This document shows, piece by piece, positions 40,756 to 45,058 of a stretch of DNA of 64,000 nucleotides. The stretch lies in the NCBI RefSeq assembly GCF_041886205.1, contig NZ_CP169029.1, one strand, 5' to 3'. Below the pieces are notes generated by a model. It did no database searches. It was not told where the DNA came from and worked only from the letters and a program-made list of their open reading frames with translations. Position 1 is the first letter of the stretch. Every line of letters begins with the position of its first letter. Both the position numbers and the translations under genes were made by a program. The DNA is from Escherichia coli. Its GTDB lineage: Bacteria; Pseudomonadota; Gammaproteobacteria; Enterobacterales; Enterobacteriaceae.

Positions 40756-42005
<1,250 letters not shown>

Positions 42006-42182
42006 TAAAGTAAGTAACTGGTTAATTTACATTCTGGTCGCGTGCGCAAATACGCTTTTCCTCACACAGTTGTCAAGTGTTACGTTTAGATAATTGCTAT
42101 CCGGAAAAGCATCTGCTATTTATAGCGGCCTCATTTTTCCCCCGAACATGGGGATCGATAGTGCGTGTTAAGGAGAAGCAAC

Positions 42183-42638
42183 ATGCAAGAAGGGCAAAAC
42201 CGTAAAACATCGTCCCTGAGTATTCTCGCCATCGCTGGGGTGGAACCATATCAGGAGAAGCCGGGCGAAGAGTATATGAATGAAGCCCAGCTGGCGCACT
42301 TCCGTCGTATTCTGGAAGCATGGCGTAATCAACTCAGGGATGAAGTCGATCGCACCGTTACACATATGCAGGATGAAGCAGCCAACTTCCCGGACCCGGT
42401 AGACCGTGCAGCCCAGGAAGAAGAGTTCAGCCTCGAACTGCGTAACCGCGATCGCGAGCGTAAGCTGATCAAAAAGATCGAGAAGACGCTGAAAAAAGTG
42501 GAAGACGAAGATTTCGGCTACTGCGAATCCTGCGGTGTTGAAATTGGTATTCGCCGTCTGGAAGCGCGCCCGACAGCCGATCTGTGCATCGACTGCAAAA
42601 CGCTGGCTGAAATTCGCGAAAAACAGATGGCTGGCTAA
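42183..42638 (+). CDS. dksA: RNA polymerase-binding transcription factor DksA (151 aa)
   Basis: Start at [19 protein letters not shown] (ATG 42183, AGGAGA RBS); coiled-coil plus C4 zinc finger (CESCGVEI...CIDC). Confidence 0.95.
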
Positions 42639-42666
42639 TTACAGCCGTTCCATCACGTTTACCACA

Positions 42667-42695
42667 GGCGGGAAATGCTCCCGCCTTATTTTTTG
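42667..42695 (+). terminator. intrinsic terminator downstream of dksA, overlapping the gluQ 5' end
   Basis: ggcggga-aatgc-tcccgcc followed by TTATTTTTT; the 42675 ATG lies in the hairpin loop. Confidence 0.8.
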
Positions 42696-43601
42696 TTCAA
42701 AGAGATGACAGACACACACTATATTGGCCGCTTCGCCCCCTCTCCTTCCGGCGAGCTTCATTTTGGTTCTCTGATTGCTGCGCTTGGCAGCTATTTGCAG
42801 GCTCGCGCCCGGCAAGGTCGCTGGCTGGTACGCATAGAAGATATCGACCCGCCTCGTGAAGTTCCCGGTGCCGCAGAAACTATCCTGCGCCAGCTGGAAC
42901 ATTACGGCCTGCACTGGGACGGCGATGTTCTCTGGCAATCGCAACGTCACCACGCCTATCGCGAAGCACTCGCCTGGTTACATGAGCAAGGACTAAGTTA
43001 TTACTGCACCTGCACGCGTGCGCGTATTCAAAGCATTGGTGGTATTTACGACGGTCATTGCCGGGAATTGCATCATGGACCAGATAACGCCGCAGTGCGT
43101 ATCCGCCAGCAGCATCCGGTCACCCAGTTTACTGACCAGCTGCGCGGCATTATTCACGCCGAAGAAAAACTGGCGAGGGAAGATTTTATTATTCATCGCC
43201 GTGATGGTTTGTTTGCCTATAACCTGGCGGTGGTGGTGGATGATCACTTCCAGGGCGTGAGCGAAATTGTCCGCGGGGCAGATTTGATCGAACCGACAGT
43301 GCGGCAAATCTCGCTGTACCAGCTTTTTGGCTGGCAAGTGCCAGATTACATTCATCTGCCGCTGGCGCTTAATCCACAAGGCGCTAAACTTTCCAAGCAG
43401 AATCATGCGCCTGCGTTGCCGAAAGGCGATCCACGCCCGGTACTAATCGCGGCACTTCAATTTCTGGGGCAGCAGGCAGAAGCACACTGGCAGGATTTCA
43501 GCGTCGAGCAAATCCTTCAGTCAGCCGTCAAAAACTGGACGCTGACCGCCGTGCCTGAGTCGGCAATTGTAAATTCAACATTCTCAAATGCGTCATGCTG
43601 A
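42675..43601 (+). CDS. gluQ: glutamyl-Q tRNA(Asp) synthetase GluQ (YadB), truncated GluRS paralog
   Basis: Class-I aaRS catalytic domain ([23 protein letters not shown]). Longest ORF starts at ATG 42675 (308 aa), which lies inside the dksA terminator hairpin; in-frame ATG at 42705 ([10 protein letters not shown], 298 aa) is an alternative start. Confidence 0.85.
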
Positions 43602-43660
43602 GCTATGATTAGCCGCTATTTTTTTGTCCTGAATGATGTTTGACACTACCGAGGTGTACT

Positions 43661-45058
43661 ATTTTTACCCGAGTCGCTAATTTTTGCCGCAAGGTGCTAA
43701 GCCGCGAGGAAAGCGAGGCTGAACAGGCAGTCGCCCGTCCACAGGTGACGGTGATCCCGCGTGAGCAGCATGCTATTTCCCGCAAAGATATCAGTGAAAA
43801 TGCCCTGAAGGTAATGTACAGGCTCAATAAAGCGGGATACGAAGCCTGGCTGGTTGGCGGCGGCGTGCGCGACCTGTTACTTGGCAAAAAGCCGAAAGAT
43901 TTTGACGTAACCACTAACGCCACGCCTGAGCAGGTGCGCAAACTGTTCCGTAACTGCCGCCTGGTGGGTCGCCGTTTCCGTCTGGCTCATGTGATGTTTG
44001 GCCCGGAGATTATCGAAGTTGCAACCTTCCGTGGACACCACGAAGGTAACGTCAGCGACCGCACGACCTCCCAACGCGGGCAAAACGGCATGTTGCTGCG
44101 CGACAACATTTTCGGCTCCATCGAAGAAGACGCCCAGCGCCGCGATTTCACTATCAACAGCCTGTATTACAGCGTAGCGGATTTTACCGTCCGTGATTAC
44201 GTTGGCGGCATGAAGGATCTGAAGGACGGCGTTATCCGTCTGATTGGTAACCCGGAAACGCGCTACCGTGAAGATCCGGTACGTATGCTGCGCGCGGTAC
44301 GTTTTGCCGCCAAATTGGGTATGCGCATCAGCCCGGAAACCGCAGAACCGATCCCTCGCCTCGCTACCCTGCTGAACGATATCCCACCGGCACGCCTGTT
44401 TGAAGAATCGCTTAAACTGCTACAAGCGGGCTACGGTTACGAAACCTATAAGCTGTTGTGTGAATATCATCTGTTCCAGCCGCTGTTCCCGACCATTACC
44501 CGCTACTTCACGGAAAATGGCGACAGCCCGATGGAGCGGATCATTGAACAGGTGCTGAAGAATACCGATACGCGTATCCATAACGATATGCGCGTGAACC
44601 CGGCGTTCCTGTTTGCCGCCATGTTCTGGTACCCACTGCTGGAGACGGCACAGAAGATCGCCCAGGAAAGCGGCCTGACCTATCACGACGCTTTCGCGCT
44701 GGCGATGAACGACGTGCTGGACGAAGCCTGCCGTTCACTGGCAATCCCGAAACGTCTAACGACGTTAACCCGCGATATCTGGCAGTTGCAGTTGCGTATG
44801 TCCCGTCGTCAGGGTAAACGCGCATGGAAACTACTGGAGCATCCTAAGTTCCGTGCGGCTTATGACCTGTTGGCCTTGCGAGCTGAAGTTGAACGTAACG
44901 CTGAACTACAGCGTCTGGTGAAATGGTGGGGTGAGTTCCAGGTTTCCGCGCCACCAGATCAAAAAGGGATGCTTAACGAGTTGGATGAAGAGCCGTCACC
45001 GCGTCGCCGTACTCGTCGTCCACGCAAACGCGCACCGCGTCGTGAGGGTACCGCATGA
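43661..45058 (+). CDS. pcnB: poly(A) polymerase I PcnB (465 aa), AUU start codon
   Basis: Nucleotidyltransferase motif [17 protein letters not shown]; start assigned to ATT 43661..43663 preceded by GAGG, following the published AUU initiation of pcnB; ORF-track TTG start 43640 is 7 codons upstream. Confidence 0.85.

Follow-up and report, generated by a model that had tools for sequence, protein, structure and literature searches.

An intrinsic terminator between dksA and gluQ of Escherichia coli and the start codon of gluQ

In E. coli the gene for glutamyl-queuosine tRNA-Asp modification, gluQ (gluQRS), lies directly behind dksA, and the short region between them holds a terminator-like hairpin whose loop carries an in-frame ATG of gluQ. 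This arrangement raises the question of how gluQ is transcribed past the hairpin and from which ATG it is translated. We addressed this question in a stretch of E. coli DNA of 64,000 nucleotides (hereafter the window), in which positions 42100-43700 comprise dksA-gluQ-pcnB, all on the plus strand. This region is 100% identical to that of E. coli strain 6EVA (the RefSeq annotation of the 100%-identical genome is NZ_CP138428.1) and 95-99% identical to that of nearly all of 5424 complete E. coli genomes, 4477 of which carry the 100-nt terminator region at 99% identity or above. The dksA coding region (42183-42638, RefSeq annotation) specifies 151 amino acids with the Pfam domains DksA_N and zf-dskA_traR and ends with TAA at 42636-42638. 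Read from the second of its two candidate ATGs, gluQ extends from 42705 to 43601, specifies 298 amino acids and ends with TGA at 43599-43601. An antisense ORF of 104 amino acids is present on the minus strand (42639-42953); the annotated genes here are all on the plus strand.

The dksA stop codon is followed by a spacer of 27 nt (42639-42665), which varies in sequence and length between genera, and then by the hairpin (42666-42686), in which AGGCGGGA (42666-42673) pairs with TCCCGCCT (UCCCGCCU in RNA; 42679-42686) around the 5-nt loop AATGC (AAUGC in RNA; 42674-42678). The stem consists of 8 bp, six of them G-C, and has an energy of -14.5 kcal/mol. The U-tract UAUUUUUUGUU (TATTTTTTGTT in DNA) occupies 42687-42697, with seven U residues among its first 9 nt. 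The first in-frame ATG (ATG1, 42675-42677), from which the legacy K-12 annotation reads a protein of 308 aa, lies in the hairpin loop, and the second (ATG2, 42705-42707) lies in the same frame 30 nt from it and 18 nt 3′ of the stem. A first-pass annotation, made from the sequence alone, had described a hairpin and U-tract after dksA with ATG1 in the loop and ATG2 at 42705, and our coordinates agree with it; it was right to place a terminator after dksA but not to call its position immediate, as the hairpin starts 28 nt past the stop codon.

Intrinsic terminators are G+C-rich stem-loops of about 5-14 bp, with a loop of 3-8 nt and a U-rich tract immediately 3′. Both the G+C-rich stem-loop and the U-rich tract 3′ of the stem are found at 42666-42697. 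The hairpin was the top terminator-like site of a local scan, which by itself is non-discriminating (6 sites found versus 4.7 expected). The 72-nt region has a folding energy of -18.5 kcal/mol (z = -2.7; one of 200 shuffled sequences was as stable), and the hairpin was retained in the minimum free energy (MFE) and the centroid folds of both this region and its 201-nt context. The hairpin motif occurs once in the 64-kb window, and membership in a REP-like repeat family was rejected on this ground. On the minus strand, no U-tract follows the hairpin; thus, the terminator is unidirectional. In the MFE fold of the 72-nt region, the U-tract (UAUUUUUU) also pairs with AAGAGAUG, which includes ATG2 (42687-42707). 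We considered this second hairpin non-functional, since it consists of A-U and G-U pairs only, is marginal in stability (about -4 kcal/mol) and is unconserved in other genera.

We then compared the region across the Enterobacteriaceae. A genome scan with the 298-aa protein provided 80 loci, one per species, from the 80 closest species, and thus 81 sequences with the window included. In essentially all 80 species, the dksA-gluQ intergenic region contains a hairpin of the form GGCGGGA(G)-loop-(C)UCCCGCC, so that the structure is kept in relatives, as is looked for in a terminator. The loop and the upstream and downstream spacers diverge in sequence and length, and outside the hairpin neither the 80-species comparison nor RNAalifold on 25 genera revealed conserved columns or a conserved alternative structure. 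The core GCGGG/CCCGC and, in a count by pairs, the six core pairs are invariant or nearly so in the 69 distinct sequences. Compensatory changes occur at loop-proximal pairs (A-U to G-C in four sequences and G-C to A-U in six) and also at the stem base. Paired cells amounted to 85%, versus 48-59% in controls in which the partner had been slid by 1-3 columns; pairing-preserving double changes were seen at 5 of the 11 pairs, only marginally more than in the controls. Since the stem hardly varies, the support from covariation is weak. Support for the stem thus comes more from its conservation than from covariation, and we take conservation to be the decisive evidence against chance.

The tail is less uniform than the stem. 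The loci of Enterobacter, Lelliottia and Yokenella keep the invariant stem with a poor tail, UUGUUACC, containing only 3-5 U residues; ATG2 is only 12-14 nt downstream in the Enterobacter/Lelliottia clade, and 10-12 nt past the stem when the stem is taken in its extended form (poor-U-tract loci L030, L039-L044, L052, L053, L057, L059-L061, L065, L071, L073 and L078; about 1470-1500). Termination in the Enterobacter clade may therefore be weak, and the conserved stem might serve another role there. A decayed stem (GUCGGGG...CCCGUA, -6.7 to -8.1 kcal/mol) with no U-tract is found in four loci (L023, L025, L029 and L058) of Phytobacter, Kosakonia sp. S29 and UBA3516, and the stem is altered in L064 and L081. 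Four Kosakonia loci (L047, L048, L050 and L064) possess an extra strong hairpin, of up to -24 kcal/mol, just upstream of the conserved one.

Published experiments on S. flexneri bear directly on the function of the element. Caballero et al. 2012 (BMC Microbiol 12:226, PMC3542578) found co-transcription of dksA and gluQ-rs. When the dksA promoters were left out of a lacZ fusion, activity was at baseline under standard growth conditions, the only ones used; in these conditions, therefore, gluQ lacks its own promoter (PMC3542578). Reporter activity was 10-fold higher once the dksA/gluQ intergenic region had been deleted, and point mutations in the stem increased downstream lacZ activity more than 2-fold (PMC3542578). 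In stationary phase, the RT-PCR product spanning the intergenic region rose 20-fold, versus 1.3-fold for the dksA and gluQ amplicons, as judged by end-point RT-PCR, which is semi-quantitative (PMC3542578). The authors left riboswitch-like or protein-mediated control possible, and their search with a riboswitch server was negative (PMC3542578).

The 3′ end of the upstream transcript has been mapped in E. coli K-12. Term-seq by Adams et al. 2021 (eLife 10:e62438, PMC7815308) placed a 3′ end at 160097 on the minus strand, with an average read count of 3,097,035 (LB, OD 0.4), far above the other table entries seen. Its Rho score, from bicyclomycin data, was 1.16 and non-significant, and its intrinsic terminator score was 7.47 against a threshold of 3 (PMC7815308). 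DirectRNA-seq reads in 800-nt windows around this position numbered 250 upstream and 62 downstream, and 250 and 72 with bicyclomycin (PMC7815308). The K-12 sequence is identical to that of the window across the region, and 160097 corresponds to window position 42690, inside the U-tract. Adams et al. label this end 'internal to gluQ, +15' (PMC7815308), because the K-12 MG1655 record (NC_000913.3) keeps gluQ as a 308-aa gene from ATG1 (159186-160112). With the corrected gluQ start established below, it is the primary terminator of dksA, or a 3′ end in the gluQ 5′ UTR. The Term-seq experiment that the first-pass annotation had proposed was thus already in print, and its reading of the hairpin as an intrinsic terminator is upheld by this dominant Rho-independent 3′ end in the K-12 U-tract together with the conservation of the stem in 80 species. 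Its further claim, that gluQ is expressed by terminator read-through from the dksA promoters, is likewise sustained by the lack of a separate promoter and the reporter increases in S. flexneri (PMC3542578).

The same K-12 data set contains two other 3′ ends near dksA. One, 160387 on the minus strand (about window position 42400), lies inside dksA and is much weaker: it has 29,202 reads and an intrinsic score of 1.04, and its Rho score is non-significant (PMC7815308); it is probably a processing product. The other, 160652 on the minus strand (window position 42135), was classed as 'orphan', with 48,011 reads in one condition (PMC7815308), and coincides with a terminator-like hairpin, CTGCTATTTATAGCGG followed by CCTCATTTTT, at 42113-42139. 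This hairpin is situated upstream of dksA, about 130 nt past the sfsA stop codon and near or over the proximal dksA promoter region.

Which of the two ATGs begins GluQ had been called ambiguous in the first-pass annotation, which also took the annotated start to lie within the hairpin. The latter is true of the legacy K-12 MG1655 record and not of genomes annotated by PGAP, which uses the 298-aa start in every non-K-12 genome that we inspected, identical and related genomes alike. The former has been settled, and the N-terminal sequencing that had been proposed as a check was already published. Edman sequencing of the His-tagged S. flexneri protein, expressed with its native intergenic region, gave T-D-T-Q-Y-I-G-R-F-A-P, from a protein that had been over-expressed from a T7-driven plasmid and so at other than native levels (PMC3542578). 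This sequence begins after the second Met; therefore, translation started at the second AUG and the protein has 298 amino acids (PMC3542578). Caballero et al. also noted that the first AUG lies inside the terminator loop and that E. fergusonii lacks it (PMC3542578). Apart from this 2012 paper, no start-site profiling or N-terminomics of GluQ turned up in a literature search.

The comparison of species points to the same codon. ATG2 is present in all 81 sequences, aligned with the motif M-x-x-x-x-Y-[IT]-G-R-F. The loop ATG is found only in the window, Escherichia sp. E1V33, E. albertii and Escherichia sp. MOD1-EC7003, the last of which has a 1-nt deletion in the spacer that puts the loop ATG out of frame, so that it runs into a TAA. 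It is absent from E. whittamii (loop AATAC, or AAUAC in RNA) and E. coli AF16 (ATTAC, or AUUAC), in both of which the stem, U-tract and ATG2 are unchanged, and the 80-species comparison found it in no genus other than Escherichia. In addition, the spacer indels among species are not multiples of three. In view of its losses with the stem, U-tract and ATG2 intact, ATG1 is an unselected accident of the loop sequence. Protein data agree: the chains of the YadB/GluQ-RS crystal structures (PDB 1NZJ and 4A91) have 298 amino acids and begin with MTDTQYIGRF, and the Pfam tRNA-synt_1c match covers the 308-aa form only from residue 19 onwards (profile position 5), so that the ten extra residues of that form fall outside the catalytic domain. 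ATG2 stands just before the RFAPSPSG...HxGS class-I motif, at a start that is conserved in orthologs, as expected for the N-terminus of a GluQ-RS. Because the Edman sequence, conservation, the Pfam boundary, the 298-aa crystallised protein and PGAP all agree, we conclude that the functional GluQ start is ATG2 at 42705, that the start is not truly ambiguous and that the K-12 reference record places the start of gluQ (b0144) 10 codons too far upstream.

Translation signals of the two candidates differ from those of the neighbouring genes. The predicted anti-Shine-Dalgarno (anti-SD) duplex is -9.2 kcal/mol at the dksA start, which has the strong Shine-Dalgarno AAGGAG, and -7.2 kcal/mol at the AUU start of pcnB, which has the good Shine-Dalgarno GAGGUG. 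ATG1 is preceded by the SD-like 5′ arm of the stem, at -6.3 kcal/mol; since these bases form the stem, they are not free. ATG2 reaches -1.7 kcal/mol and has no Shine-Dalgarno, and random window positions have a median of -2.2 kcal/mol. A Shine-Dalgarno before ATG2 was found in none of the 80 species (median +0.6, best -4.0 kcal/mol). Since the median of the 80 species is +0.6 compared with -2.2 kcal/mol at random positions, the lack of a Shine-Dalgarno before gluQ is conserved. The pcnB start lies at 43661-43663 (ATT, according to PGAP), and this non-canonical AUU start is the published means of limiting pcnB translation. Two adjacent genes, gluQ with its SD-less start and pcnB with its AUU, therefore have expression-limiting start signals. 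Caballero et al. likewise noted no obvious Shine-Dalgarno ahead of the real gluQ-rs AUG (PMC3542578). Both termination and a weak SD-less initiation would thus restrict the output of GluQ-RS.

Given these results, we consider it very probable that a constitutive, leaky Rho-independent terminator ends most dksA transcripts and keeps gluQ expression low, with translation from 42705. The structure, its conservation, the 3′ end, its Rho-independence, the lack of a separate promoter and the N-terminus are established; the following course of events would connect them. RNA polymerase starting from the dksA promoters upstream, which would also drive gluQ, would run past the dksA stop codon and transcribe the hairpin and then the U-tract. 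Most transcripts would be released in the U-tract, with a 3′ end at about 42690, yielding an abundant monocistronic dksA mRNA, and a minority would read through and carry gluQ, probably continuing towards pcnB. Read-through would amount to some 10-25%, as estimated from the 10-fold reporter difference and the 62/250 ratio of downstream to upstream reads. On the read-through RNA, ATG1 and its SD-like sequence would be locked in the hairpin, and ribosomes would begin, presumably weakly, at ATG2, 18 nt past the stem in an A/U-rich stretch free of structure, and with no Shine-Dalgarno. The outcome would be a double limit, transcriptional and translational, on the 298-aa GluQ-RS. Against so simple a terminator stands the modest effect of the stem mutations, about 2-fold compared with 10-fold for the intergenic deletion (PMC3542578); therefore, either the stem was incompletely disrupted in the mutant, or part of the effect comes from the U-tract or from elsewhere in the intergenic sequence.

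Other readings of the locus have to be weighed against this one. Transcripts typically end 7-9 nt past a terminator stem, and the end mapped here lies only 4 nt past it, a short offset that counts against a terminator and that is probably due to exonuclease trimming. The same offset would be expected if the chief role of the hairpin were to stabilise the dksA mRNA at its 3′ end or to stop its processing, with exonucleases trimming to the stem, and the clades that retain the stem with a poor U-tract could be read in this way as well. We nevertheless regard this role as very unlikely in E. coli, where the U-tract is good (seven U in 9 nt), the intrinsic terminator score is well above threshold, read density falls 4-fold across the site (PMC7815308) and reporter activity rises upon stem mutation or deletion of the region, which is unexpected for a pure stabiliser (PMC3542578). 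It is similarly improbable, to a high degree, that gluQ has its own promoter in or after the terminator region, with read-through as a minor source. Caballero et al. mention a sigma-24 site predicted for gluQ in RegulonDB (PMC3542578), and a sigma-70-like sequence, TTCAAA-18-TATATT, is present at 42696-42725; however, no match to the sigma-E consensus GGAACTT-N15-17-TCAAA with three or fewer mismatches was found at 42000-42760, and the construct without the dksA promoters gave baseline lacZ activity, albeit under standard growth conditions only. The sigma-70-like site was rejected as a gluQ promoter, since such matches occur at chance frequency (3 found versus 3.0 expected) and this one would initiate transcription downstream of ATG2. 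Least credible to us is the idea that ATG1 is a genuine start, alone or together with ATG2, producing a 308-aa isoform when read-through or translation melts the hairpin. It is in frame, has an SD-like sequence where ATG2 has none and serves as the start in the K-12 MG1655 annotation, and the Edman data come from an over-expression construct (PMC3542578); but the N-terminus at ATG2 was the sole one detected there, ATG1 and its SD-like sequence both lie within the -14.5 kcal/mol hairpin, and the losses and frame shifts of ATG1, the spacer indels and the position of the ten extra residues, which are missing from the crystallised form, all speak against it.

What the constitutive terminator leaves unexplained is that the intergenic RT-PCR product rose 20-fold in stationary phase. 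This rise, set against the 1.3-fold change of the flanking amplicons, is what would be expected of a regulated attenuator, whether riboswitch-like, protein-binding or sensitive to DksA/ppGpp, in which growth phase or stress switches read-through; the control that Caballero et al. left possible and a stem that stays unusually invariant from genus to genus, including those with a poor U-tract, fit the same idea. The search of 41900-43800 against Rfam, however, returned no family at E <= 1 except a chance snoRNA match inside dksA, RNAalifold on 25 genera recovered the terminator helix alone, with no antiterminator pairing or aptamer, and the spacer 5′ of the stem is unconserved in sequence and length. 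The hairpin moreover persists when the 201-nt context is folded, in the MFE as in the centroid structure, the riboswitch server search by Caballero et al. was negative, and the 20-fold figure comes from a semi-quantitative assay. We therefore judge an attenuator to be unlikely. Because of the invariant stem despite a decayed U-tract, the SD-depleted gluQ start and the 20-fold RT-PCR rise, we leave a small chance that read-through is modulated by growth phase or stress, perhaps through DksA/ppGpp or a factor that recognises the invariant stem. [quoted passage not shown]

The terminator, the part it plays and the codon at which gluQ truly starts are already known and published, and the scientific weight of finding them again is accordingly small. 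The practical value of the analysis is in annotation: the 308-aa start in K-12 makes genome-wide studies class the dksA terminator as internal to gluQ (PMC7815308), and the 80-species data, in which conservation extends to the stem and ATG2 but not to ATG1 and a Shine-Dalgarno is lacking, provide independent support for a 298-aa reference start. They also indicate that the low-expression design of gluQ is conserved in the Enterobacteriaceae.

The closest known system is the dksA/gluQ-rs terminator of S. flexneri (PMC3542578), which is the orthologous element, with the same hairpin, the first AUG in its loop and a second in-frame AUG downstream. The two also share the lack of a gluQ promoter, terminator-limited expression and the lack of an obvious Shine-Dalgarno. 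They differ in that the S. flexneri paper gives the spacing of the AUGs as 27 nt (PMC3542578), whereas it is 30 nt here, and in that GluQ of the window has His5 (MTDTH) in place of Gln5 (MTDTQ); the regulatory element itself is unchanged. The E. coli K-12 terminator (PMC7815308) is identical in sequence to that of the window and differs in having been classed as internal to gluQ. More distant parallels are the terminators upstream of dnaG, in rpsU-dnaG-rpoD, and in recA-recX, which are likewise leaky, lie within operons and result in a low ratio of distal to proximal product, but which have no sequence relationship to the element described here. This comparison rests on the discussion of Caballero et al., who cite the dnaG and recX terminators as analogues and give a read-through of about 10% for recX (PMC3542578).
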